Shown: piece after piece, positions 1 through 14,234 of the stretch
Position numbering within the stretch: the first letter of the stretch is position 1
Layout: each line of letters starts with the position of its first letter
NCBI GenBank assembly: GCA_963668625.2
Contig: CAXXKA010000005.1
Coordinates: 64,001 to 128,000, forward strand
Source: an uncultured candidate division Zixibacteria bacterium
GTDB lineage: Bacteria; Zixibacteria; MSB-5A5; UBA10806; 4484-95
DNA length: 64,000 nucleotides
Direction: 5' to 3'
Program-made: the position numbers and the translations under genes
The notes under the pieces: generated by a model
Databases searched by the model: none
What the model was told of the DNA's origin: nothing
What the model saw: only the letters and a program-made list of their open reading frames with translations

Positions 1-162
1 GATTTCCCTGATACACTGGACGTTATTATCTCCGGCGATTCACCTTTATATTTCAAGGCCCGCTCTCATTACTGGTCGTATAGTGATTCAATATCCGCTA
101 CGCTTTACATAAAAGATGTACTTGAGTCAACGCATACCGTATACCTTTATAACAAAGGATGA
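1..162 (+). pseudogene. Internally deleted remnant of the toxin gene (middle region joined out of frame to the last codons of a toxin C-terminus); runs off the left edge
   Basis: 1-154 matches 5522-5675 (DFPDTLDV...VYLYN) with one mismatch. The sequence then jumps to AAGGATGAAAAGCCATGGGAAGATTA (KDEKPWED end, cf. 2020-2046 and 6836-6862) in another frame. Frame 1 stops at 160-162. Confidence 0.75.
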
Positions 163-168
163 AAAGCC

Positions 169-1215
169 ATGGGAAGATTAACTAATTTAGGATACGTTTT
201 TACTTTTTTATTATCGATGGTTTCAATCAATAGCACTGCCGCTGCCCAATATTACTATGTTAATGGATATTCTATGGCAGAGGATGGATTGACAAACAAT
301 GTTATCTACAAAATAAGTTTGGAAACAGTCGAGGTAATTGACAGCATAGTTTTTGATAGGCAGGGGGAATTTACTTCATCAACTCCCATATCTTTACAAA
401 GGCCGGGCAGTGACTTAAAATTATTAGTTTGGGTAGGATATGGATTGCCTGGTAAAAATTCAATTCCAGACAATCCGGTTTTATCATACTATTGGATTAT
501 TAATGAACGAAATTTTAAAATAGCTGGATCTGATAGTCTGCTGAATAATATTGTTTTAGGAATTAAACCTATCGGTATAGATTCAGTAGAATTTGACTGC
601 ATCGGTTTTTCACAGGATAAAGATGTTTTAAAAAAGTACACCTTCGATAGGGATAACAATAGTTTTAGGATGATTGAACAAACCCCATATAATGAAAGGG
701 AGATCAATGATGTAAGAATTGGAGACTACACTAATCCTTATTATTTGGCGTTAAATAACCAACGAAATTACTACTATGATTTTTCTAATGATCCTGATGA
801 GCTTATAGATATCTTTAGTACCCAAAATAATATTGATGTTTCAAAGCAAATAAATGCCGGCGATCTTTCGCAGGAGAGCGTGATTTTGGGATATTCTCCG
901 GAGTATGACAATATTTACTGTTTCAATTTTCGATTCAAGATACTGGCTATGTATCCGCATCCTGAATCACCGGATTCGATTTCAAATACTCTGAGGATTA
1001 TAAACGGCGAAACATTTGATGTAATCAATACTATTAACTTTGAACTTGGTGATATTTACTTGCCGCAAGAATTAGAAAACGCCGTCTACCAGGATGGATA
1101 TCTAATTCACTATTTCGCCAAAAGCGATGGCTATGGCCGTTATGACCCCGCTTATTTGTTAATTTTCGACACCCGCACCAACGAGGCCTCGTGGCTGCGT
1201 GTGGGATGGAGGTAA
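169..1215 (+). CDS. Secreted putative immunity protein, cassette 0 (type A)
   Basis: 348 aa with an N-terminal signal peptide (…STAAA-Q). Near-duplicate of 2034..3074. Ends in the shared IFDTRTNEASWLRVGWR. Start overlaps the PWED toxin end. Confidence 0.75.
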   Translation: MGRLTNLGYVFTFLLSMVSINSTAAAQYYYVNGYSMAEDGLTNNVIYKISLETVEVIDSIVFDRQGEFTSSTPISLQRPGSDLKLLVWVGYGLPGKNSIPDNPVLSYYWIINERNFKIAGSDSLLNNIVLGIKPIGIDSVEFDCIGFSQDKDVLKKYTFDRDNNSFRMIEQTPYNEREINDVRIGDYTNPYYLALNNQRNYYYDFSNDPDELIDIFSTQNNIDVSKQINAGDLSQESVILGYSPEYDNIYCFNFRFKILAMYPHPESPDSISNTLRIINGETFDVINTINFELGDIYLPQELENAVYQDGYLIHYFAKSDGYGRYDPAYLLIFDTRTNEASWLRVGWR

Positions 1216-1263
1216 AATTTGTTCGTGGCTGGCAAAAGTTTCCGCCTGCTGCTTAGAGACAGC
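1169..1263 (+). repeat. Array junction repeat copy 1 (50-bp core 1169-1218 plus REP-like hairpin)
   Basis: ACACCCGCACCAACGAGGCCTCGTGGCTGCGTGTGGGATGGAGGTAAAAT followed by TTGTTCGTGGCTGGCA(A/G)AAGTTTCCGCCTGCTGCTTAGAGACAGC. Confidence 0.95.
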
Positions 1264-2046
1264 AATGTTACATTCTGGAGAGATTCATTATATGCCGTTG
1301 GTGGATCTTTAACAGTTGCTTGCGAAGGGTATTTGACTCCTGTTGAAAACATCAATAATTGCTTTAATATTGATACTGATAGTACAATTAATGATACTAC
1401 TACTATTCCTACAAGATTGATATTGATAGATAGTGATCCTTCAAATCAGATGTTTCTTGACTCATTACAATATGACATCGTAAAAACAATTGCATATTAT
1501 GAATGGGCTGGAAGTAGTGATAGTAGGCATTGCGATGATCCATATAATTCTCAATATAACAACTATTGGGATAATGTTATAGATGAGGGAGATACTTGTA
1601 TAGAAACCAGATTTCCTTGCGAAAATCGCTATTCTACAGCAACTGGCACAATGCAAATGTTACGTGGTACCAGGGAAAAGCTTTTTAACGGCTCGTTTGT
1701 AGGAGGTGGAGACACAACGGGATTTATTGGTTGCTCCTGGGATTGCCTCGCATGGAATTGGAAAATTAATGTATTCAATGGAAAATGGGTATATATAACT
1801 GATATGTTCCACTATATTAATAAAGATACCAATCCCCAACGAAATTGGGACTCACTTTATACTCCAGCTAGTGATTATTCGCCTGACTCAACAAATAAAG
1901 AAGATATTGCTGTTTACGGTTACCATCTAGGCTCAACAAAGATGAAAGCAATTAGAACACAAAGCGATTGGAACGATAAAGTCGTAGAAGATGAATATGT
2001 CAATAACGTAAGAAGATATAAGGATGAAAAGCCATGGGAAGATTAA
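1219..2046 (+). CDS. Orphan lytic transglycosylase (SLT/lysozyme-like) toxin C-terminal cassette 1
   Basis: SLT-like motifs: TIAYYE (putative catalytic Glu), STATGTMQM (GLMQ-like), NVFNGKW, AVYGYHLG. TTG start is supplied by the repeat. No signal peptide. Confidence 0.7.
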   Translation: MFVAGKSFRLLLRDSNVTFWRDSLYAVGGSLTVACEGYLTPVENINNCFNIDTDSTINDTTTIPTRLILIDSDPSNQMFLDSLQYDIVKTIAYYEWAGSSDSRHCDDPYNSQYNNYWDNVIDEGDTCIETRFPCENRYSTATGTMQMLRGTREKLFNGSFVGGGDTTGFIGCSWDCLAWNWKINVFNGKWVYITDMFHYINKDTNPQRNWDSLYTPASDYSPDSTNKEDIAVYGYHLGSTKMKAIRTQSDWNDKVVEDEYVNNVRRYKDEKPWED

Positions 2047-3074
2047 CTAATTTAGGATACGTTTTTACTTTTTTATTATCGATGGTTTCAATCAATAGCA
2101 CTGCCGCTGCCCAATATTATTACGTTAATGGATATTCTATGGCAGAGGATGGATTGACAAACAATGTTATCTACAAAATAAGTTTGGAAACAGTCGAGGT
2201 AATTGACAGCATAGTTTTTGATAGGCAGGGGGAATTTACTTCATCAACTCCCATATCTTTACAAAGGCCGGGCAGTGACTTAAAATTATTAGTTTGGGTA
2301 GGATATGGATTGCCTGGTAAAAATTCAATTCCAGACAATCCGGTTTTATCATACTATTGGATTATTAATGAACGAAATTTTAAAATAGCTGGATCTGATA
2401 GTCTGCTGAATAATATTGTTTTAGGAATTAAACCTATCGGTATAGATTCAGTAGAATTTGACTGCATCGGTTTTTCACAGGATAAAGATGTTTTAAAAAA
2501 GTACACCTTCGATAGGGATAACAATAGTTTTAGGATGATTGAACAAACCCCATATAATGAAATTGAGATAAATAATGAAAGAATTGGAGACTACATTTTT
2601 CCTCACTACCTGGCGGAAAATAATCAGCGTAACTACTATTATGATTTTTTGCGTCATCCAAACATATATATATTTAGTACCCAAAATAATATTGATGTTT
2701 CAAAGCAAATAAATGCTGGCGATCTTTCACAGGAGAGTGTGATTTTGGGATATTCTCCGGAGTATGATAATATCTACTGTTTTAATTTTCGATACAAGAT
2801 ACTGGCAATGTATCCGCATCCCGAATCACCGGATTCGATTTCAAATACTCTGAGGATTATAAACGGCGAAACATTTGATGTAATCAATACTATTAATTTT
2901 GAACTGGGTGATATTTACTTGCCTAAAGAATACAATAAAGCTGATTATCAGGATGGATATCTAATTCACTATTTTGCCAAAAGCGATGGCTATGGCCGTT
3001 ATGACCCCGCTTATTTGTTAATTTTTAACACCCGCACCAACGAGGCCTCGTGGCTGCGTGTGGGATGGAGGTAA
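2034..3074 (+). CDS. Secreted putative immunity protein, cassette 1 (type A')
   Basis: 346 aa with signal peptide; 13-nt overlap with the upstream toxin stop; shared C-terminus. Confidence 0.75.
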   Translation: MGRLTNLGYVFTFLLSMVSINSTAAAQYYYVNGYSMAEDGLTNNVIYKISLETVEVIDSIVFDRQGEFTSSTPISLQRPGSDLKLLVWVGYGLPGKNSIPDNPVLSYYWIINERNFKIAGSDSLLNNIVLGIKPIGIDSVEFDCIGFSQDKDVLKKYTFDRDNNSFRMIEQTPYNEIEINNERIGDYIFPHYLAENNQRNYYYDFLRHPNIYIFSTQNNIDVSKQINAGDLSQESVILGYSPEYDNIYCFNFRYKILAMYPHPESPDSISNTLRIINGETFDVINTINFELGDIYLPKEYNKADYQDGYLIHYFAKSDGYGRYDPAYLLIFNTRTNEASWLRVGWR

Positions 3075-3122
3075 AATTTGTTCGTGGCTGGCAGAAGTTT
3101 CCGCCTGCTGCTTAGAGACAGC
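3028..3122 (+). repeat. Array junction repeat copy 2
   Basis: Identical 50-bp core plus REP-like hairpin. Confidence 0.95.
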
Positions 3123-3923
3123 GAGGTTACATTCTGGAGAGATTCATTGTATGCTGTAGGTGGTTCGTTAACTGTTGCGTGCCAGGGGTATTTATCCCCG
3201 GTTGAAAATATCAATAATTGCTTTCAAATAGATACTGACAGTACATTAAATGATTCTACTAAAATCCCAGATTTATTGATACTTATTGATCGAGATCCAC
3301 CAAACGCTTTATTCTCTGATAGTCTTGGTACAGATAGAAATAGGGCTATTGCATGGGCTGAAGCCGCAGGCACTTTGGATATAACTCATTGTCATAATCC
3401 ATATAATCCCTTATGGAATCATTACTGGGATACCAGAATAAGCGGGGCGGATACATGCTACGATACGCGTACTCCTTGTGAAAATGCTGGTGGCACCGAT
3501 ACTGGGATAATGCAGATATATAGAACTGTATGGGATACAGTATTTACCACACCAAGTAGCTTCCCACAATATCCCGCTGGCTTTACAATATGCAAACGGG
3601 ATAGTCTGGAATGGAATTGGATGATTTGTATACATAATGGACGGTGGATACTGGAAGATTGTATGCCTGCACGTATGAAAGCTTCTCAACAAGCTTGGCC
3701 TGAATCTTGTTCATATGCAGATTGTGATTCTGTTCCTGATATGCCTAACCAAGAAGACTTAGCTAATTATGGTTATCATGCAGGTGAAGGCAGAATGAGG
3801 ATTATTGATACTGAAAAACTATGGAAACAAAAGATATTTAAACCTAATAATCTTTTTGAAATCGATTGGGCAAATTATATTAAGAATGTAAGGAGGATAA
3901 AGTATAATGGAAATTTATGGTAA
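3078..3923 (+). CDS. Orphan lytic transglycosylase-like toxin cassette 2
   Basis: Motifs RAIAWAE, GTDTGIMQI, CIHNGRWIL, ANYGYHAG; Cys-rich; TTG start inside the repeat. Confidence 0.7.
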   Translation: MFVAGRSFRLLLRDSEVTFWRDSLYAVGGSLTVACQGYLSPVENINNCFQIDTDSTLNDSTKIPDLLILIDRDPPNALFSDSLGTDRNRAIAWAEAAGTLDITHCHNPYNPLWNHYWDTRISGADTCYDTRTPCENAGGTDTGIMQIYRTVWDTVFTTPSSFPQYPAGFTICKRDSLEWNWMICIHNGRWILEDCMPARMKASQQAWPESCSYADCDSVPDMPNQEDLANYGYHAGEGRMRIIDTEKLWKQKIFKPNNLFEIDWANYIKNVRRIKYNGNLW

Positions 3924-4935
3924 AAACGCGATAGGCATTCTGTTAGCTGTGTCTATTTGCGCGAGCATTTGCTTTGCACAGCAATATGCAGTCAATACCT
4001 ACGATGAAGACTCTCCCGGTTTTCCCAAAAGGATTAAAACAGTTTTTATAGACCTTGAAAATAAAAATATAATTGAAAGTGTTGTAATTGGTGAACAAGG
4101 TCAAATAATTAATAAAACACCATTAGTCATAAAAAAGCAATCTGATTCGTTGTTAATTACTGTAGTCATGGAAAGATGTTATTGCGATAATGCAACATTA
4201 GGGCAAACCAGAGCAAGAATTACCTTATTTGATTTTGAGTCCATAAGAATTTTAGATTCTTATGATGATACTAGCCTATTTATTACTTCTCTAGAACAAC
4301 TTGAAGGCGAGAGAATTTATATGTCCGGTTCGTTAATTTACGATCATAATAGAACAATTAAAGGCATATATACTCTTAACAATGTTTTTCATTTAAATTT
4401 GGAGGAATCGAGATCTCGGGATTATTCTTACAATCTATTAGATGGCATAAATAACTTTGATTTACTTGAGCTGGTTGATACGCGATTAAATTTATATAAG
4501 ACATCAAATGGTTCACAACGTTTTATTTTACGGATAAATAACTCCAGAGACCAGTTGTTAGATTCATTAGTTTTAGATAATGAACCTTACAGAAGCCAAG
4601 TTTTTGCCATAAAGGATACACTTATTTATGTATTCAATCAAAATTATGAAATTCATATGGAATTTACGACAAAAAATCGCGAAGATAATTGGATTGATAG
4701 TCATGTTAAGTTGTATGATTTAAGCGATTTCTCTTTAATTGATTCAATACCATTACCTGATTATCCTGAAAACGACTATATAGGCGGTGATTTTAATAAA
4801 GCTGATGTAGTCGGTGACTTTATCGTATATTACTTTTTTGGTAGAGAGGGCTTAACCCGTTATGCTCCAGCCATGCTATTCATTTTCGACACCCGCACCA
4901 ACGAGGCCTCGTGGCTGCGTGTGGGATGGAGGTAA
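3907..4935 (+). CDS. Secreted putative immunity protein, cassette 2 (type B)
   Basis: 342 aa with signal peptide (…ICFA-Q); overlaps the toxin stop by 17 nt; ends YAPAMLFIFDTRTNEASWLRVGWR. Confidence 0.75.
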   Translation: MEIYGKNAIGILLAVSICASICFAQQYAVNTYDEDSPGFPKRIKTVFIDLENKNIIESVVIGEQGQIINKTPLVIKKQSDSLLITVVMERCYCDNATLGQTRARITLFDFESIRILDSYDDTSLFITSLEQLEGERIYMSGSLIYDHNRTIKGIYTLNNVFHLNLEESRSRDYSYNLLDGINNFDLLELVDTRLNLYKTSNGSQRFILRINNSRDQLLDSLVLDNEPYRSQVFAIKDTLIYVFNQNYEIHMEFTTKNREDNWIDSHVKLYDLSDFSLIDSIPLPDYPENDYIGGDFNKADVVGDFIVYYFFGREGLTRYAPAMLFIFDTRTNEASWLRVGWR

Positions 4936-4983
4936 AATTTGTTCGTGGCTGGCAGAAGTTTCCGCCTGCTGCTTAGAGACAGC
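4889..4983 (+). repeat. Array junction repeat copy 3
   Basis: Identical core plus hairpin; diverges from copies 2 and 4 after GAGGTTA at 4990. Confidence 0.95.
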
Positions 4984-5064
4984 GAGGTTAAATGGCGTAG
5001 TAAAGGGGCAGATGAGGTTATTTACCATCTTAGAACAATAATTTTAATAATATTACATAATTGC

Positions 5065-5094
5065 TTGACAAAATAGAATACCCTAGCGCATATT
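5065..5094 (+). promoter_or_regulatory. Possible sigma70 promoter inside the array
   Basis: TTGACA at 5065-5070, 18-bp spacer, CATATT at 5089-5094; AT-rich upstream. Confidence 0.35.
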
Positions 5095-5443
5095 ACAGCA
5101 TATTGGAGCAGGCAGTTTAGGAGCAGGTTACTTTTACTTCCCCGGAGAACAAATACTTGTATGTGAAGAACAGCCGGTACTCTCGGAAAATTGCTGGCTT
5201 GAGGATGTATTATCTTGGCCGCCAAGGATTTTAATAACGAATGTCGATGTAGTATGGCCTGATGGTCGAGAGTATGAACATACAAGTTTATACGGTTGCG
5301 GGTGTATAATAGGGGAAGACTACCAGGATACTGTACGTAAAATAAACGGACTTGGTTATATAAGGTTTATAAATAGTGGCTTTCCATATTTCTGGCCTGT
5401 TTGTGAAGGTTATATTATTTATGATACTTATGCATTTACCTGT

Positions 5444-6862
5444 ATGAGAACCCCATGCCAGGGCGGTGGAGGTGCATTTGAGCCAAAACAATCGATAGCT
5501 TTTACTGATTCATTATATAATGATTTCCCTGATACACTGGACGTTATTATCTCCGGCGATTCACCTTTATATTTCAAGGCCCGCTCTCATTACTGGTCGT
5601 ATAGTGATTCAATATCCGCTACGCTTTACATAAAAGATGTACTTGAGTCAACGCATACCGTGTACCTTTATAACAGCGGTGATTCATGTTTTTATGGCAG
5701 CTTTGAAAACAGTAAAGAGCTTGGATTGAAATCATTCGGTATGGCACATATCGACATCGATTCGGTACGATTAGAATTAGATCCTTTTGCCGTTACTTTC
5801 GATGAAGTTGGTGTTTGTCTGCCGAAGCTAATAACCTCAACCGATACCGTTATTATCAATCATTCTGATATGAAAGTAAGCGCGGATTTTATAGCCGGCC
5901 TGGAGATAATACATGATGTAACCGGGGATAGAGTAGAGCCTGCCGAGATTGTTGATAGTGTTGGGTACAGGTACAAAAGCAAATGGGTATCTAATACAAG
6001 TTATTCTAAAACAACTAAACATAAAATATTCTATCGCTCCTTTCCAGATGATACTACGAAGTCATTGTGGTGGGACGGTAACAGAGATAGTTGTAGTGTA
6101 ACTTTTTGTAGAGATTCATTGTATGCGGTTGGGGGTTCTCTATCAGTTGCTTGCGAAGGGTATTTGACTCCTGTTGAAAACATCAATAATTGCTTTAATA
6201 TTGATACTGATAGTACAATTAATGATACTACTACTATTCCTACAAGATTGATATTGATTGATAGTGATCCTTCGAATCAGATGTTTCTTGACTCATTACA
6301 ATATGACATTATTAAAGCTATTGCATGGCAGGAATATGCTGGCAGTAATGATGGAACTCATTGTACGCCTTATCATAATCGATATAATAATTATTGGGAT
6401 AGTAGAATTACTGAAAGTGATACATGTCTCGATACGAGATTCCCTTGCGAAAATCGCTTATCTACAGCCACAGGTATAATGCAAATGTTACGTAGTACTT
6501 GGGAGAACTTATTTAATTTAAGCGGCGTTTATACTGAGCCCGATAGTTTTTATGCATGTAAATGGGATAGTTTAGCTTGGAGTTGGAAGATAAATATATT
6601 TAATGGTAAATATATCCATCAAAAAAGCTGCTTTTATCATATGACCAGTGCACAAAAGGCATGGGATTCTTTATATACTCCAGCTTCTGATTATACACCT
6701 GATTCTACTAATAGAGAAGATTTAGCTACTTATGGTTATAAAGAAGGTAGCACGTTTATGAGAAAAATTAGAACTTTAAAAGACTGGAATACTAAAATTA
6801 AATCGTTTTTTTACGTAAATAACGTAAGAATGTATAAGGATGAAAAGCCATGGGAAGATTAG
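5444..6862 (+). CDS. Longer lytic transglycosylase-like toxin cassette 3 (probably 5'-truncated; frame open from 5087)
   Basis: C-terminal part has AIAWQE, STATGIMQM, NIFNGKY and ATYGYKEG. Extra N-terminal region present. The frame has no stop back to TAG at 5084-5086 and no ATG/GTG/TTG before 5444. Confidence 0.7.
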   Translation: MRTPCQGGGGAFEPKQSIAFTDSLYNDFPDTLDVIISGDSPLYFKARSHYWSYSDSISATLYIKDVLESTHTVYLYNSGDSCFYGSFENSKELGLKSFGMAHIDIDSVRLELDPFAVTFDEVGVCLPKLITSTDTVIINHSDMKVSADFIAGLEIIHDVTGDRVEPAEIVDSVGYRYKSKWVSNTSYSKTTKHKIFYRSFPDDTTKSLWWDGNRDSCSVTFCRDSLYAVGGSLSVACEGYLTPVENINNCFNIDTDSTINDTTTIPTRLILIDSDPSNQMFLDSLQYDIIKAIAWQEYAGSNDGTHCTPYHNRYNNYWDSRITESDTCLDTRFPCENRLSTATGIMQMLRSTWENLFNLSGVYTEPDSFYACKWDSLAWSWKINIFNGKYIHQKSCFYHMTSAQKAWDSLYTPASDYTPDSTNREDLATYGYKEGSTFMRKIRTLKDWNTKIKSFFYVNNVRMYKDEKPWED

Positions 6863-7878
6863 TTCAATTAACCTCATTAATTATGACTATAGCGGTCATT
6901 ACATCATTAGTGAATGCTCAAACGATATATCTTAACTCATATGCATTAGATGAGAGATCAATAAGCAATTTTATTTATAAAGTTAATATAGAAAGCCAAT
7001 CTATTGAGGATTCACTATTTTTACCAACCAATGGATCTTTCTGTATGAAAAAGCCAATTATAGTTGATTATAGTAACAGTAGTTATATTCTCTCATTTTG
7101 GGTAAATGGATTGTATGCTAAAAACTCGCAACTTGGAATACATACTACATCTCATTATTGCGCCGTTGATATGGAGACATTCGATATGGTTAATTGTGAT
7201 AGTCTTCTTGATGTAATGGTAGGTGATAAATACTCGTATGATAATGACACTTTGATTGTTGAATTATATGAAGAAAATACCGGTGTATGGGAAGAAAGTA
7301 AATTATTATTTGATAGGGATAACAGACTAATTGAGCAAAGTAGCCGAAATTTAACAAGACAAGATTTAGAATCTATTATGGTTGGTAATTATGTTGAACC
7401 TGATATAATTTTCTCACAGGATACTATTAGCTATTATTGGGGGTATGAGGATGTTGGTGAAAATTCATATGTTAATTTACTTGCGGTTATTGATAGTGAT
7501 ATTATTTTTGAAAAGAGAATTGCCGATAGAGTATCTGCAAATATCATTGTGGGATTTAATTCAGAAACAAATATGATATATGCATTTATTTTACCTTTTA
7601 AGCTTCTATCATATAATCCAATCGAACAATCGCCTGAAAATATAACACCTGAAATACTAGTAATTAGTCCGGATAATTTTGAAATAGTGCAAACTCTTAA
7701 TATTGATATGGGAGATATATATCTGGGTCGTGAAACTGGAAACTGTAGTTCATTCGATTCCTATTTATACTATTACTTCTTCCTCCAAGATGGTGTTGGC
7801 CGTTATGACCCCGCTTATTTGTTAATTTTTAACACCCGCACCAACGAGGCCTCGTGGCTGCGTGTGGGATGGAGGTAA
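6850..7878 (+). CDS. Secreted putative immunity protein, cassette 3 (type C)
   Basis: 342 aa with signal peptide (…LVNA-Q); 13-nt overlap with the toxin; ends GRYDPAYLLIFNTRTNEASWLRVGWR. Confidence 0.75.
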   Translation: MGRLVQLTSLIMTIAVITSLVNAQTIYLNSYALDERSISNFIYKVNIESQSIEDSLFLPTNGSFCMKKPIIVDYSNSSYILSFWVNGLYAKNSQLGIHTTSHYCAVDMETFDMVNCDSLLDVMVGDKYSYDNDTLIVELYEENTGVWEESKLLFDRDNRLIEQSSRNLTRQDLESIMVGNYVEPDIIFSQDTISYYWGYEDVGENSYVNLLAVIDSDIIFEKRIADRVSANIIVGFNSETNMIYAFILPFKLLSYNPIEQSPENITPEILVISPDNFEIVQTLNIDMGDIYLGRETGNCSSFDSYLYYYFFLQDGVGRYDPAYLLIFNTRTNEASWLRVGWR

Positions 7879-7926
7879 AATTTGTTCGTGGCTGGCAGAA
7901 GTTTCCGCCTGCTGCTTAGAGACAGC
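7832..7926 (+). repeat. Array junction repeat copy 4
   Basis: Identical core plus hairpin; lies within a 465-bp tract (7797-8261) that reads identical to 2993-3457. Confidence 0.95.
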
Positions 7927-8742
7927 GAGGTTACATTCTGGAGAGATTCATTGTATGCTGTAGGTGGTTCGTTAACTGTTGCGTGCCAGGGGTATTTATC
8001 CCCGGTTGAAAATATCAATAATTGCTTTCAAATAGATACTGACAGTACATTAAATGATTCTACTAAAATCCCAGATTTATTGATACTTATTGATCGAGAT
8101 CCACCAAACGCTTTATTCTCTGATAGTCTTGGTACAGATAGAAATAGGGCTATTGCATGGGCTGAAGCCGCAGGCACTTTGGATATAACTCATTGTCATA
8201 ATCCATATAATCCCTTATGGAATCATTACTGGGATACCAGAATAAGCGGGGCGGATACATGTTCTGATACTCATATGCCATGTGAAAATGCGATTGGTGT
8301 TGATACTGGTGTTATGCAAATATATAGACAATGGAAACCACAGAGTTCTACAGATACAAGTGGTTGGGCATTACATTTTGCTAGATCAAATAGTAAACCT
8401 AGTGGGTATATACAAGTAATGTGGGATAGCCTTGCTTGGAATTGGGCTATATGCATTTATAATGGCAAATACATTCACGATGTATATATGCCATCAAGAT
8501 TTACTTCTGCGCAAAAACTTTTTCCAGATTCATGCTCTTACGCTAACTGCGACACTTTTCCGTTAAATGCTAATAAAGAAGACTTAAAAAGCTATGGATA
8601 TCATAGAGGTGACCCTGAGATGAAATCAATCACAACTATTAATTGGAATGAAATGGTTGCTGATACTACTGATCCTATTAGCGATGGAGCACAATATGTA
8701 CAAAGAGTTAGATTGTTCAAATATACAAAACCATGGGAGTAA
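7882..8742 (+). CDS. Orphan lytic transglycosylase-like toxin cassette 4
   Basis: Motifs RAIAWAE, GVDTGVMQI, CIYNGKYI, KSYGYHRG; first ~127 aa identical to cassette 2, then divergent. Confidence 0.7.
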   Translation: MFVAGRSFRLLLRDSEVTFWRDSLYAVGGSLTVACQGYLSPVENINNCFQIDTDSTLNDSTKIPDLLILIDRDPPNALFSDSLGTDRNRAIAWAEAAGTLDITHCHNPYNPLWNHYWDTRISGADTCSDTHMPCENAIGVDTGVMQIYRQWKPQSSTDTSGWALHFARSNSKPSGYIQVMWDSLAWNWAICIYNGKYIHDVYMPSRFTSAQKLFPDSCSYANCDTFPLNANKEDLKSYGYHRGDPEMKSITTINWNEMVADTTDPISDGAQYVQRVRLFKYTKPWE

Positions 8743-9800
8743 AAATGAATTGTAGATTAAGATTCATTGGATTAGTTTGTTGGATAATATTATTACACTC
8801 ATTAGCTTTGTCGGAAGCATATGTTGTGCATTCATATACAAGCAACAATCCTACTTCTTACAATGTATCAGTAAGCCTAATTAATCTTAATACACTGGAA
8901 ATAATCGACAATATTGAATTACCTATGACTGGCACAATAATGAACAAAAAGCCAATAGTGGTACTTGTGGATGACCAGGAATTGTTTTTATGTTTTACCC
9001 TTAATGGATGTATGGGGAAAAACGCAGATTTATCAGGTAACGGAGAAGTGTTGTATTATTCCGTGTATACAATTCGTGATAATTCTATACAGCTATTGCA
9101 TACCGATAGCTTGAGTGCCGTTATCGTTGATTACGTAGAGCAACTTCAGGGAGAGTCAGGTTTCAGATTGTCAATAAGGGATGCCCTGCGTGATAATTAT
9201 CTATTTGATCCGGGTTTATACTCAATCGATAATAATTTTGATTTTAGTCCAATCAGTCCAATTGAAAATGACAATGAAATGCCAGGTTACATTGAGCAGA
9301 TTGATGAATTCGAAAACTTGAATATTATTCGAAATGCAGAAGCAGATCATCTTTATTATTCATTTCATAATTCTCAATACTGGCTTTTAAAACTTGATAC
9401 TCGGGATAATTCAATAGTTGATTCTCTTCAACTAAGATATTCTGGCGGTCAAGCGACTATTTTTGGTTATCATCCATTGAGAGATAAGTTTTATTGTTTT
9501 CACACTAACTATGAGATCCATGGGAAATTCGTGGAGAAAAGCAGAGAGAACTATTATATCACGCCTGATGTCCAAATATATAATCCTTTAACATTGGAGT
9601 TGATGGAAAGCTTTGGAATACCGGACTATCCCGAGGGCAATTACCCCGGAAAAGAAAACGGCGCTTTCGATACGGTCGGTGATTATATAATTTATTATTT
9701 TTTTGAGGATGACTGGTTTCCAGTATATGCTCCAGCTATGCTATTCATTTTTAACACCCGCACCAACGAGGCCTCGTGGCTGCGTGTGGGATGGAGGTAA
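8733..9800 (+). CDS. Secreted putative immunity protein, cassette 4 (type D)
   Basis: 355 aa with signal peptide; overlaps the toxin PWE end by 10 nt; ends YAPAMLFIFNTRTNEASWLRVGWR. Confidence 0.75.
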   Translation: MGVKMNCRLRFIGLVCWIILLHSLALSEAYVVHSYTSNNPTSYNVSVSLINLNTLEIIDNIELPMTGTIMNKKPIVVLVDDQELFLCFTLNGCMGKNADLSGNGEVLYYSVYTIRDNSIQLLHTDSLSAVIVDYVEQLQGESGFRLSIRDALRDNYLFDPGLYSIDNNFDFSPISPIENDNEMPGYIEQIDEFENLNIIRNAEADHLYYSFHNSQYWLLKLDTRDNSIVDSLQLRYSGGQATIFGYHPLRDKFYCFHTNYEIHGKFVEKSRENYYITPDVQIYNPLTLELMESFGIPDYPEGNYPGKENGAFDTVGDYIIYYFFEDDWFPVYAPAMLFIFNTRTNEASWLRVGWR

Positions 9801-9803
9801 AAT
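9754..9803 (+). repeat. Array junction repeat copy 5 (core only)
   Basis: Identical 50-bp core, followed by C-ATG of the next gene instead of the REP hairpin. Confidence 0.95.
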
Positions 9804-9804
9804 C

Positions 9805-11286
9805 ATGTATAAGTATATAGCTTTACTACTCATTACATTAACTTTCAGATTTGCCTTTGGCGAACCGCAAGTTAGTACAACAACTTTTTTGAATTCCACT
9901 GAACCAACTAAGATGTGTCAGGATTACATTGATAAAGAATATGGCGCCTTGTCAAGAGCTATGCTTAAGCCTACTGGCGGCGCGCTTATCAGAGTTAATA
10001 TGTTGACCAGCACATATTGCAAGTTTATTTTTTGTGATGAACCGGCAAACCGTTTATATATTTTCCATCTTCTGGATACATCACCTGTAAGAACGCCCGT
10101 CAGAATGTCTACGTATGGCTTACAGAAAGATCCCGTATGGTTCAGTATAACTCACGAGGACTCATTAATACCTGATACGATAACAGCTCCATCCATGGAT
10201 AGGGATAGTATTGGCTATTTCTGGAGTCCCGTTGATATCGCAGTTTCCTCATGCGGAAATACCTATTACACGAATCATGATTATATATATGTTGTTGATA
10301 GCGGAAACCGCAGAATTGTCAAACTTCGCTACGATATAATGACTGATTCAATCCTCTGGATCGGTAGTTTTGGAGATGATATTCTAATTGATCCAACCGC
10401 GATCGACTATGCCGATTACAATGATGCTGATACGACTAATGATGATGTTTACGTAACGGATGGTTATCACGCTAAAATATTTCGGTTCTCCGCTACCGGT
10501 GAATACGAAACCTCATACGGCGGGCGAGGCACGAGCCTGGCGGAAATAGGTTATCCGACGGGAATTGCGGTTTCCACAGATACCCAATTGCCTGATAGAA
10601 TTTATATTACCGATTCGAAATACCATCGAGTCATCCGCTATTATTCCGGTACGAGCGGCCCGATAGTAGCTCAAAAACAATATAAATTCCCTCATTATCT
10701 ACCCGGTGATAATAAAGTGCCATATCTAAGCGCTATTGATACGGATGGCGCTGGTAATGTATATGTTTTAGATAGATTTGCGCACAAAATGTATATCCTA
10801 TCAGGCGACATAGAATCAAGAATTAAGGAATATGGAGAATATGGTTTCGGACTGATGCAGTTTAATCACCCATCGGATATTTATATTGATCATACACCGG
10901 TAAACGAGGAGATGGTCGTCTGCGAGATGTGGGATACCACTTCAGGTATTCAATCGTTCGATATTTCCTACAGTATATTTAAAGAAACGGACGAAATCCC
11001 GCTACCCAAAAAGTACAGTCTGTATCAAAATTACCCGAACCCATTCAACTCAGTCACACAAATAAAGTTTGATCTTCCTCGTCCAAGTAATGTTAAGCTG
11101 GAGATTTTTAATATTCTTGGTCAAAAAGTTAAAACTATAAAAAATGATGTAATGCCTGCGGGAAGTCATGCTATTGTTTGGAAAGGCGAAAATGACGCTG
11201 GTGATGAGATATCATCCGGTATGTATTTTTATAAGCTAAGCACATCTGATTATACCGAATCCCGAAAAATGTTATTGCTAAAATAA
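9805..11286 (+). CDS. Secreted NHL-repeat beta-propeller protein with C-terminal sorting-type (T9SS-A-like/FlgD Ig) domain
   Basis: ATG at 9805 follows GGAGG of the repeat; signal peptide MYKYIALLLITLTFRFAFG; NHL repeats (IYVVDSGNRRI, PTGIAV); CTD QNYPNPFN…SSGMYFYKL…KMLLLK. Confidence 0.85.
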   Translation: MYKYIALLLITLTFRFAFGEPQVSTTTFLNSTEPTKMCQDYIDKEYGALSRAMLKPTGGALIRVNMLTSTYCKFIFCDEPANRLYIFHLLDTSPVRTPVRMSTYGLQKDPVWFSITHEDSLIPDTITAPSMDRDSIGYFWSPVDIAVSSCGNTYYTNHDYIYVVDSGNRRIVKLRYDIMTDSILWIGSFGDDILIDPTAIDYADYNDADTTNDDVYVTDGYHAKIFRFSATGEYETSYGGRGTSLAEIGYPTGIAVSTDTQLPDRIYITDSKYHRVIRYYSGTSGPIVAQKQYKFPHYLPGDNKVPYLSAIDTDGAGNVYVLDRFAHKMYILSGDIESRIKEYGEYGFGLMQFNHPSDIYIDHTPVNEEMVVCEMWDTTSGIQSFDISYSIFKETDEIPLPKKYSLYQNYPNPFNSVTQIKFDLPRPSNVKLEIFNILGQKVKTIKNDVMPAGSHAIVWKGENDAGDEISSGMYFYKLSTSDYTESRKMLLLK

Positions 11287-11289
11287 AAA

Positions 11290-11311
11290 AAGGCGTTCAC
11301 CAGAACGCCTT
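11290..11311. terminator. Intrinsic terminator hairpin between convergent genes
   Basis: AAGGCGTTC-ACCA-GAACGCCTT preceded by an A-run. Confidence 0.7.
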
Positions 11312-11320
11312 CAAATCATC

Positions 11321-11345
11321 GTGGCCGGCAGACATCCCCGTCTGC
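11321..11345 (+). repeat. GTGG-foot REP-like palindrome
   Basis: GTGGCCGGCAGACATCCCCGTCTGC; related to 12390, 43931, 44159, 54471 and to the array hairpin. Confidence 0.6.
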
Positions 11346-12608: not shown

Positions 12609-14234
12609 CTATTTTAAAAGCATCATAGACTTTTGCTCGACCTCATCACCGGCATGAATCCTGTAAAAATACATACCCGAGGCGGATGAACCGGCTTTCC
12701 ATACCACTCTATGCGCACCGGCGTTCTGATCCTCATCTACGAGTGTGACAACCTTGCGGCCGAGGATATCATAAATATCCAGAGTTACCCGGCTGTCCTG
12801 TTTGATATTATACTCGATAGTAGTCGTGGCGTTAAACGGGTTGGGATAATTTTGTTTGAGCGCGAAAGAACCGGGAAGGTTATCGTTATCATCAATACCC
12901 GTCCAGAAATCAAGGGCTAAATCAATATCGGTATATATATCATAGCCGACAGTTACATTAGTGACAGTGTCCTCATCATAAACAAGCATGGGATCCTCGA
13001 AATAGATATCGTAACTACCGGGATTGATTATCTCGAGACTATAGAATCCCAGGCTGTCGGTTATAGTCATTATCGAGGGCTGACCCAGTATTGAAACCTG
13101 GATACCGCCGACAGGATCGTCATTACCGGCGAACGTGACAGTACCCGATATACCACCGGGCATGTGAAGAGTCATATCGAGTGTCGAAACAGAATCGTAA
13201 GCAGCGGTAACGGCGTAAGAGACCGTGTCGAAATAATCCGAGTGGCTGAATGTTACATCATAATCATCCGGTTCGAGCCCCCTGAATTCATAAACACCGT
13301 TCAAGCCGGTATATACCGATTGTTCGCCAATGATAACTTCGATATCGGAAATAGGATCACCGAGGTAATCGGTAACCGTACCGGATATGATACCCAGCAT
13401 ATTCAGTACGAAATCCTGGTATGTGTGCTCGTTCTCATATACCGTAATCGTAACCGAGTGTGACGCGTAATCGGGATGGTCAACAATCAGTGTGAAGTCG
13501 GTAAAAGGGTAATGACCCATATGATAGTCGCCTTCGCTATCGGTAGAAGTCTGCTTTCCTGTCTCCTCGACCGTGACATTGATTCCCTCGATCGGGTTAT
13601 CTGCTATATCAATGATAGTACCCTCGAGATAACCACCACCATTGAAATGGAACATCGGGAAAGTCTCGACCATGATATATACGTCCTCGGCGAGCGTATC
13701 ACCGGCATTTGATGGCCCCTGGTAGGGGTTCAACCCCGGGCATAATGCCAATACATCATCTCCGATATTAAGAGAATCGTTAGCGGTTTTAATTACGAAT
13801 TTGGCTGCCATATAATCACCAAGCGAGATAAACCAGGGCGATTCACTGGTGGGGTAGAACCGGGCCCAACCCATCAAAGAATGAGCCGACCAACCCTCGG
13901 GGTTCGGCGGTGAGCCGTAAGCCTCGGTAAAATACGCGCCATCCCATTCGGTCAGAGGATAATACAATTCACCCTCGGTTTCGCTTAGCAGGCTGTCCAC
14001 GTATTTATCCATAGTGCCAAGAGGCAAATGTAAATCAGCAACATGATTATTAGCGCCGGTAAAGATATAAACAGGTATATTTAAACGTTGATTGATCTCA
14101 ACGTTCATAGTCTGACCGGTTGCATTACCATATGATATATATAAACTGTCAGTTTGGCTGTACACTTTGGTTGGCGCGGCAATTAATACAATAAAAGATG
14201 CGCAAACAATAAAATATTCAAGCAATCGTTTCAC
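12609..14234 (-). CDS. Secreted protein with carboxypeptidase regulatory-like repeats and C-terminal sorting-type domain
   Basis: Signal peptide; three G.I.GTVTD..G.PI repeats; CTD QNYPNPFNATT…SGMYFYRI…MMLLK. Confidence 0.8.
   Translation of the reverse strand: MKRLLEYFIVCASFIVLIAAPTKVYSQTDSLYISYGNATGQTMNVEINQRLNIPVYIFTGANNHVADLHLPLGTMDKYVDSLLSETEGELYYPLTEWDGAYFTEAYGSPPNPEGWSAHSLMGWARFYPTSESPWFISLGDYMAAKFVIKTANDSLNIGDDVLALCPGLNPYQGPSNAGDTLAEDVYIMVETFPMFHFNGGGYLEGTIIDIADNPIEGINVTVEETGKQTSTDSEGDYHMGHYPFTDFTLIVDHPDYASHSVTITVYENEHTYQDFVLNMLGIISGTVTDYLGDPISDIEVIIGEQSVYTGLNGVYEFRGLEPDDYDVTFSHSDYFDTVSYAVTAAYDSVSTLDMTLHMPGGISGTVTFAGNDDPVGGIQVSILGQPSIMTITDSLGFYSLEIINPGSYDIYFEDPMLVYDEDTVTNVTVGYDIYTDIDLALDFWTGIDDNDNLPGSFALKQNYPNPFNATTTIEYNIKQDSRVTLDIYDILGRKVVTLVDEDQNAGAHRVVWKAGSSASGMYFYRIHAGDEVEQKSMMLLK

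Follow-up and report, generated by a model that had tools for sequence, protein, structure and literature searches.

Peptidoglycan effectors that are paired with a periplasmic immunity protein are known from several bacterial systems, pesticin and Pim being one such pair. In Tse1/Tsi1 and Tse3/Tsi3, a lysozyme-fold enzyme is encoded next to an all-beta partner with a signal peptide, and for Tsi1, which gives periplasmic immunity against a peptidoglycan hydrolase, a partial beta-propeller has been described (PMC3391265). In the polymorphic toxin loci of the Rhs, CdiA and MafB type, a full-length secreted gene is followed by an immunity gene and, further downstream, by 5′-truncated copies that retain the pre-toxin block, each with its own partner, and mosaic breakpoints are seen between the copies. 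A locus that resembles both kinds of system, its full-length secreted gene being found in relatives, lies at positions 1-11286 of the window analysed here, i.e., the whole stretch of 64,000 nucleotides at positions 64,001 to 128,000 of contig CAXXKA010000005.1 (G000:C5:64001-128000) from the genome of an uncultured candidate division Zixibacteria bacterium (GenBank assembly GCA_963668625.2, here G000; 95.9% complete, 10 contigs). On its forward strand, five signal-peptide open reading frames (ORFs) of 342-355 aa, below called partners, are interleaved with four related Cys-rich ORFs resembling soluble lytic transglycosylases (SLTs). Zixibacteria are uncultured, and we know of nothing that has been learned about their competition.

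We read this array as a polymorphic peptidoglycan toxin/immunity cassette system in which each enzyme variant would be countered by its own periplasmic propeller protein, a reading for which and against which we consider the chances about evenly balanced. It starts from the assignment of the enzyme-like ORFs. An exhaustive profile search of 1.84 billion representatives recovered 57 enzyme-family proteins (a word-indexed search gave 30, one of them named Candidatus Zixiibacteriota), and two of the weakest of the 57 by the family profile, P0082 (E 1.6e-27) and P0083 (E 1.4e-25), exceed the cut-off of the Pfam SLT model with 29.3 and 27.7 bits against 21.3. Of 20 proteins scanned with that model, only these two distant relatives passed and three more matched below the cut-off. 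The family aligned to five such SLT-like relatives in hhalign with a probability of 100% (E 2.9e-42, 166 columns), and its AIAWQE fell on the relatives' AIAWQES, which we take to be the Glu-Ser catalytic motif of family 1 lytic transglycosylases. The putative catalytic Glu is invariant in 30/30 family members and 16/16 sequences of a wider alignment, as are G, M and Q of G.MQ, while YGY..G is nearly so; a Cys/His-rich insert of 25-30 aa (HC.....N.YW....DTC.DT..PCEN) separates the Glu from GIMQ. By this homology the ORFs belong to the SLT/lysozyme-like lytic transglycosylase superfamily, with activity predicted, and because five canonical SLT genes exist elsewhere in the genome, the enzyme copies of the array are extra.

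Most of what the initial annotation had read from these ORFs was recovered. The four SLT-like ORFs at 1219, 3078, 5444 and 7882 and all partners lie where it had placed them, and the motifs AIAW.E (TIAYYE in the first copy), G.MQ, NG(K/R)(Y/W) and YGY..G follow one another in 4/4 ORFs, each of which also carries the entry block RDSLYAVGGSL..AC.GYL.PVENINNCF.IDTDST.ND. Its proposed lysozyme-like SLT relationship holds by profile homology, through the Pfam-SLT-positive relatives, and was not recovered as a structural match, since Foldseek returned 0 matches at E<=0.001 for a weak enzyme model (pLDDT 52, where pLDDT is the predicted local distance difference test). Direct comparisons were equally silent: neither the four window ORFs nor any of seven full-length relatives scanned matches Pfam SLT (PF01464), NCBIfam, PADLOC and PHROGs gave no hit for the enzyme ORFs, and sequence searches of the PDB with a single protein and with a profile yielded nothing useful for the family.

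For the partners, a model of partner 5 built on an alignment of 32 partners is all-beta (pLDDT 88.4; predicted template modelling score, pTM, 0.85), and its Foldseek matches, to methylamine dehydrogenase heavy chain (E 1e-7), TolB, kelch and YVTN proteins, are all of propeller type, as had been expected. Hydrophobic signal-like N-termini occur in 5/5 window partners, in line with their predicted secretion, and in 22/22 partners listed across loci. As modelled, the partners are full beta-propellers of about 320 aa, exported by the general secretion (Sec) pathway, in a family that lacks a curated model: 0/5 window partners exceed a Pfam cut-off, including those of the known lysozyme and lytic transglycosylase inhibitor and immunity families (Ivy, MliC/PliC, PliG, PliI), and two partners scanned against NCBIfam, PADLOC and PHROGs had no match. 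Partners within one array are 13-45% identical, and mean pairwise identity stays at 0.11-0.44 until the last 25 residues, where it reaches 0.69-0.99. A predicted complex of module 4 (residues 60-286, no alignment) with partner 5 scored 0.00; it was computed without controls and is evidence in neither direction.

The elements of the array and its borders are as follows (+, forward strand).

1..168 (+): remnant of a second long SLT-like gene copy, an N-part of ~82 aa that begins left of the window, fused to KDEKPWED
169..1215 (+): partner 1, 348 aa, signal peptide and predicted beta-propeller
1169..1270 (+): junction block 1, invariant partner tail plus a 55-nt leader-derived piece, from an alignment of five junctions
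3028-3129, 4889-4990, 7832-7933 (+): further copies of the junction block
9754-9800 (+): tail-only copy of the junction block
1219..2046 (+): SLT-like module 1, 275 aa, truncated, without signal peptide
2034..3074 (+): partner 2, 346 aa
3078..3923 (+): SLT-like module 2, 281 aa, truncated
3907..4935 (+): partner 3, 342 aa, 'PAMLFIF' type
4936..5443 (+): leader copy B, junction block first, then open frame of the long gene
5444..6862 (+): long SLT-like ORF, 472 aa from its first ATG, open frame of 591 codons
6850..7878 (+): partner 4, 342 aa
7882..8742 (+): SLT-like module 4, 286 aa, truncated
8733..9800 (+): partner 5, 355 aa, the copy used for the structure model
9805..11286 (+): NHL-repeat protein, 493 aa, signal peptide and C-terminal sorting domain of the type IX secretion system (T9SS)
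11289-11312 (+): terminator-like hairpin directly after the NHL gene
11283..11325 (+): right copy of a 43-nt exact direct repeat, which includes the hairpin at 11289-11312
G000:C5:63386-63428: left copy of the 43-nt repeat, just ahead of the array

The cassettes recur with a period of 1.86 kb in repeat blocks that are 82-100% identical, far above chance. The 3′ end of each SLT-like ORF extends 10-17 nt into the partner that follows, which agrees with the translational coupling proposed for each pair, and the TTG start of each short enzyme ORF lies 4 nt beyond the end of the preceding partner. The long ORF covers profile positions 60-640 of 641, with a beta-rich region in the middle, the SLT-like domain and no signal peptide. 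Its frame is open from 5087 with no ATG, GTG or TTG ahead of 5444, and leader copy B corresponds to residues ~72 onward of full-length relatives, so that the signal-peptide part is absent. A 733-nt repeat of the leader and N-part of the long ORF is present at L012:13422-14154 and at window 4943-5675 (99.9% identical).

As the initial annotation had it, the partner at 169 follows a deleted toxin: positions 1-154 copy 5522-5675 in the N-part of the long ORF (99% identical), G000:C5:63923-64168 aligns with long-ORF residues 1-82, and the KDEKPWED at the end of the remnant represents the last codons of an enzyme gene, brought adjacent by internal deletion. Its suggestion that a full-length gene might lie left of the window did not hold. 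When 14 kb upstream were read, the array was found to start about 580 nt left of the window (G000:C5:~63420) with this second truncated copy only, and none of full length was found anywhere in G000, where the longest copies begin at profile position 60.

The cassette, as the alignments delimit it, is the enzyme domain together with its downstream partner, with putative recombination borders at two conserved blocks. Similarity of the catalytic parts tracks that of the downstream partners (Mantel r 0.65, permutation p 0.0002, 16 units from seven genomes), and the corresponding value for the upstream partner is r -0.24 (10 units). Modules 2 and 4 show 0 differences over codons 1-120 and are saturated thereafter (synonymous divergence, dS, >1.2); partners 1 and 2 show 5 differences over codons 1-180, followed by a dS of 0.19-0.61 at a ratio of nonsynonymous to synonymous divergence (dN/dS) of 0.11-0.25. 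Between truncated module 1 and the long copy dN/dS is 0.07-0.39 and the frames are open. By these substitution patterns, the truncated copies in G000 are intact and under purifying selection, not decaying.

One of the two blocks is the partner tail. In junction block 1 it reads TRTNEASWLRVGWR and ends in TGG AGG TAA, which provides a GGAGG Shine-Dalgarno (SD) sequence, and the stretch ACACCCGC through the stop is 100% identical in all five window partners. A further 55 nt are common to four of the five window junctions and hold the TTG start of the next enzyme ORF; because this piece is also found just right of the hairpins flanking the array, the short enzyme ORFs in the window have their initial 17 residues encoded by what is leader sequence elsewhere. 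Beyond the window, the tail ..LFIFDTRTNEA.WLRVGWR is nearly invariant in 24/24 copies from 10 genomes. Its Leu, Gly and Val codons vary between genomes, the Arg five codons from the end is encoded in five different ways, and the final Arg is AGG in 23/24 copies, giving GGAGG with the preceding TGG ahead of the stop. Since synonymous changes occur between genomes, the constraint seems to lie mainly on the protein, together with GGAGG, and not on RNA structure. A structured RNA in the GC-rich junction block was considered and rejected (fold energy no better than shuffles, z -0.29). The tail is written in GC-rich codons (ACC CGC ACC AAC GAG GCC TCG TGG CTG CGT GTG) within genes of 34-37% GC, and other genomes are alike in this.

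The NHL gene starts within a few bases of the partner stop in 9/9 loci, and 9/10 truncated enzyme ORFs have an in-frame ATG, GTG or TTG within -10..+4 nt of the partner stop, over six sequence-distinct junction types. Read-through of the stop codon from partner into enzyme was also considered, as the two share a frame (TAA plus one codon) in 3/3 window junctions, but these copy one block, and it was rejected because the frames differ in other genomes (4/10 truncated junctions in the same frame).

Related loci are built alike, as (enzyme-partner)n with the NHL/T9SS gene at the end, and two of them (L035, L036) contain a longer enzyme gene with an evident signal peptide. Among the 57 representatives, 12 measure 616-658 aa, and 13/14 aligned full-length forms start signal-like. 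The full-length form in relatives consists of a signal peptide, an N-terminal and middle region of ~300 aa, for which the ESM Atlas gave no usable hit with one relative, the entry block RDSLY.VGG and the SLT domain. The polymorphic-toxin design suggested earlier is thus seen in the truncated modules beside a full-length gene, in relatives; the alternative toxin domains that belong to such a design are not, as there is one enzyme fold throughout. Of the 285 genomes in the phylum, 12 match the partner profile; these belong to two families within a single order, and the other 18 families (261 genomes) give 0 matches. Within the order, partner matches occur in 12/24 genomes and enzyme matches in 10/24. 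When the order was surveyed with the full-length profile, 23 places in 10/24 genomes matched, of which three begin at profile position 1, one with an internal TAA; the other 20/23 either start at position 60, 184-245, 300 or 363-382 or are interrupted by the end of a contig. Orphan partners also exist, one related locus reading P-P-S-P-NHL (P, partner; S, SLT-like).

Several further observations were made in these relatives. One genome, G243, holds at least two separate modules (L029 and G243:C63:2691-4679), each with its own NHL/T9SS gene, and the full-length enzyme gene of the second carries one in-frame TAA. Isolated matches limited to the final 13-22 residues of the tail were seen in L024 (G257:C153:16776-16817) and at G243:C4:41891-41929, G243:C3:38874-38939 and G249:C154:1826-1864; the one in G257 immediately precedes an NHL/T9SS gene, which would fit a loss of the array in which the tail alone was retained with its ribosome-binding site.

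The array ends, as initially described, in a gene for a secreted NHL protein with a sorting domain and then a terminator-like hairpin. Its product matches Pfam NHL (27.5 bits, cut-off 20), Por_Secre_tail (30.3, cut-off 27) and TIGR04183 (41, cut-off 23); it alone has the signal peptide and sorting domain of a T9SS cargo, the enzyme and partner having no sorting domain. Its ATG lies 4 nt past the stop of partner 5, and all the related loci that were examined conserve it as their final gene. A relationship of the NHL protein to the enzymes or the partners was considered as well and rejected (hhalign probability below 1%).

The locus is accessory, because the matching site of a congener is without the array, the flanks vary between genera, the GC content is low (0.34-0.37, with 0.39-0.51 across the remainder of the window) and the occurrence is patchy. 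In that congener (G240), the proline dehydrogenase gene, which lies right of the array in G000, directly adjoins a GAF-domain gene, while in G000 the two are ~13.8 kb apart, separated by the array and a 545-aa gene to its left (L012:11708-13345 = G000:C5:61708-63345) that is likewise missing from the congener's site. This gene has a sub-threshold NCBIfam match to the antiphage family GapS1 (81.5 bits, cut-off 320) and no Pfam or PADLOC hit. The 43-nt direct repeat brackets the whole array of 11.9 kb and occurs in two copies in the genome (control pattern, 0); the pair may be a scar left by an insertion or by the duplication from which the array arose. We found no recombinase gene in or beside the array. 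Further right in the window (12609-14234, reverse strand), a 541-aa protein combines three CarboxypepD_reg-like domains with a T9SS sorting domain, and two of its paralogs are encoded around the proline dehydrogenase gene of G240.

In the mechanism that we propose for a toxin/immunity system, the first gene of each pair would supply a divergent SLT-type domain that cleaves the glycan strands of peptidoglycan, and the second a Sec-exported periplasmic beta-propeller acting as immunity protein or inhibitor specific for its enzyme variant. The functional toxin would be the ~650-aa protein of relatives, whose ~300 aa of N-terminal and middle domains presumably serve targeting or uptake. Cassettes would be exchanged or displaced by homologous recombination between the entry block and the invariant 3′ tail of the partner; because recombination is proposed to use these two handles, enzyme domain and downstream partner would always travel together, and displaced 5′-truncated modules would accumulate between them. 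The TGG AGG TAR of the tail would act as ribosome-binding site for the following gene and thereby keep the whole string, including the NHL/T9SS gene, translated. In G000, where every enzyme copy has lost its export signal and the five partners are intact, the locus is for that reason most likely now a battery of immunity genes and a reservoir of toxin modules.

A number of observations weigh against such a toxin/immunity system. The catalytic parts are 36-65% identical among alleles (the upper value is also given as 75%), and all 57 representatives match one profile, whereas the C-terminal domains of Rhs, CdiA and MafB loci are unrelated to one another. Most carriers are without a full-length enzyme gene, and neither G000, where every copy is 5′-truncated, nor the closed genome of a relative (G252) has an export-competent one. 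The likeness to the orphan cassettes of Rhs, CDI (contact-dependent inhibition) and MafB loci, which the initial annotation had drawn, extends to their architecture and not to a silent appearance, since the truncated ORFs keep an SD sequence, an in-frame start and purifying selection and look expressed. The invariant partner tail would also suit a common function apart from specificity. The permutation p of 0.0002 is generous because the units are related, and the co-variation of enzyme and partner could come from linkage within the cassette and not from co-evolution. As for delivery, the Sec signal is the only export feature seen for the system; as the initial annotation had noted for hallmarks of a type VI secretion system (T6SS), G000 has no match to the sheath gene TssC, and Pfam shows no Rhs, CDI or PAAR domain in the array ORFs, other routes not having been searched.

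An alternative that we consider improbable, if deserving of attention, is that the array has nothing to do with weapons and encodes paralogous envelope-remodelling enzymes, each with a propeller as scaffold or regulator, that act together with the T9SS-secreted NHL protein, the tandem copies reflecting paralog expansion; possible roles would be the opening of peptidoglycan for a surface structure or the processing of foreign glycans. The core of enzyme, propeller and NHL/T9SS gene is indeed kept together and coupled in all nine loci that reach the end of the array, the near-invariance of the partner tail (24/24) is what a common docking function would produce, the truncated copies look translated and are under purifying selection, and secretion machines often have dedicated lytic transglycosylases. 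Yet without a signal peptide, copies of a Cys-rich periplasmic enzyme have no way to peptidoglycan, the genome already has its five canonical SLT genes, and the partners of one array are extremely divergent (13-45% identical). Nor does a housekeeping role fit well with the patchy spread in the order (partner in 12/24 genomes, enzyme in 10/24, and congeners without either match) or with the place of the locus in a low-GC region that is missing from a congener and adjoins a gene weakly matching an antiphage family.

It is unlikely, in our judgement, that the signal-less enzyme modules are themselves the active products, made in the cytoplasm and released or delivered by an unrecognised non-Sec route, with the propellers guarding against re-entry. 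Colicin M and pesticin are made in the cytoplasm, and bacteriocins exist that act in the periplasm, have no signal peptide and are matched by periplasmic immunity proteins. An SD sequence with an in-frame start in 9/10 truncated ORFs, intact frames at a dN/dS of 0.07-0.39 and a recurrent boundary at which the short forms of several genomes begin (..SDSTYLWW.. or the entry block) are consistent with this. The short forms nevertheless are without the ~300-aa N-terminal region needed for uptake, their first 17 residues in G000 come from what is non-coding leader sequence elsewhere, the array contains no lysis or release gene, and translation may persist only as a guard against polarity on the downstream partner genes.

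We are similarly doubtful of a stronger form of the toxin reading, in which enzyme, propeller and NHL gene would together make up a new interbacterial weapon of T9SS-bearing bacteria of the Fibrobacterota-Chlorobiota-Bacteroidota (FCB) group, the Sec-exported SLT toxin being held inactive by its propeller in the periplasm and exported or presented by the surface NHL propeller, and the handles being dedicated switching sites at which modules that are translated but lack an export signal would be moved into an expression site, giving programmed toxin/immunity variation.

The assembly was compared with public short-read contigs that come from three runs of a single sample, which is probably its source. 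These show 0 differences in every unique segment and bridge all enzyme-to-partner junctions, but they break at each partner-to-enzyme block. Support for the cassette order therefore comes from the original assembly and from arrays of similar build in other genomes. A contig with a loose end at 11283 that joins left-flank sequence was considered as an empty site and rejected: because 11283 is the start of the 43-nt repeat, the simplest account is that the contig of the left boundary was placed on the right copy. Single contigs of the same sample turn to unlike sequence at 2814, 4134, 4270 and 10034, inside partner and NHL genes, and may represent variant cassettes in co-occurring strains or graph artefacts. 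That the locus in G000 is a decaying remnant without function, or its cassette order an assembly artefact of a repeat-rich region, is very improbable: the missing full-length gene, the internally deleted enzyme copy, the pseudogenised relatives (a G246 partner with three stops, a split G243 partner, the G243:C63 copy with one TAA) and contigs that break at every partner-to-enzyme block would fit, but five partner and four enzyme frames are all open, partners 1 and 2 keep a dN/dS of 0.11-0.25 in their diverged part, the public contigs match the unique segments and bridge every enzyme-to-partner junction, and arrays of the same design occur in independent genomes, one of them a single-contig genome.

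Were the array a toxin/immunity system as we propose, it would be one without a recognised secretion hallmark, and it would add a new SLT subfamily with a Cys/His-rich insert and a new family of beta-propeller immunity proteins. The related enzyme/partner pairs, of which a single array holds five, would also be a natural collection in which to study how specificity between a lytic transglycosylase and a protein inhibitor evolves. Were the envelope-remodelling alternative true, it would be a peptidoglycan-remodelling module tied to a T9SS cargo. In the titles and opening parts of abstracts returned by a full-text literature search, supplements aside, nothing describes the enzyme or partner family.

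Among known systems, the enzymes stand closest to the family 1 lytic transglycosylases of Pfam SLT PF01464 (Slt70, MltC, MltE, MltF), with which they share the motif order (Glu ending AIAW.E, G(I/L)MQ, (A/Y)GY..G) and a homology that runs through intermediates (hhalign 100%), and whose lysozyme-like helical fold they may have as well; they differ in the replacement of the Ser after the Glu, in the Cys/His-rich insert of 25-30 aa, in a conserved C-terminal ..VR..K...PW extension, and in that no window copy reaches the Pfam model. Compared with the Tse/Tsi pairs, no T6SS sheath gene was found in G000, the partner, which belongs to a new family, is modelled as a complete propeller of ~320 aa, and the pairs form cassette arrays. 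By titles and abstracts (PMC10470768, PMC12247911), the locus resembles the orphan-immunity arrays of the acquired interbacterial defence islands of Bacteroidales in that it retains several intact immunity-like genes in a row without a working cognate toxin, within a region missing from a congener; as a difference, each immunity-like gene here still has a truncated toxin module ahead of it, and no recombinase gene was seen in or beside the array. Compared with Rhs, CdiA and MafB, the putative toxin is small (~650 aa), with a Sec signal only and without Rhs/YD or haemagglutinin repeats, PAAR or VgrG, and the truncated copies of the array have ribosome-binding sites and starts. It also has what those loci lack, a second handle at the 3′ end of the immunity-like gene, and if the toxin/immunity reading is true, this end would serve at once as a protein motif, a recombination handle and the ribosome-binding site of the next gene.

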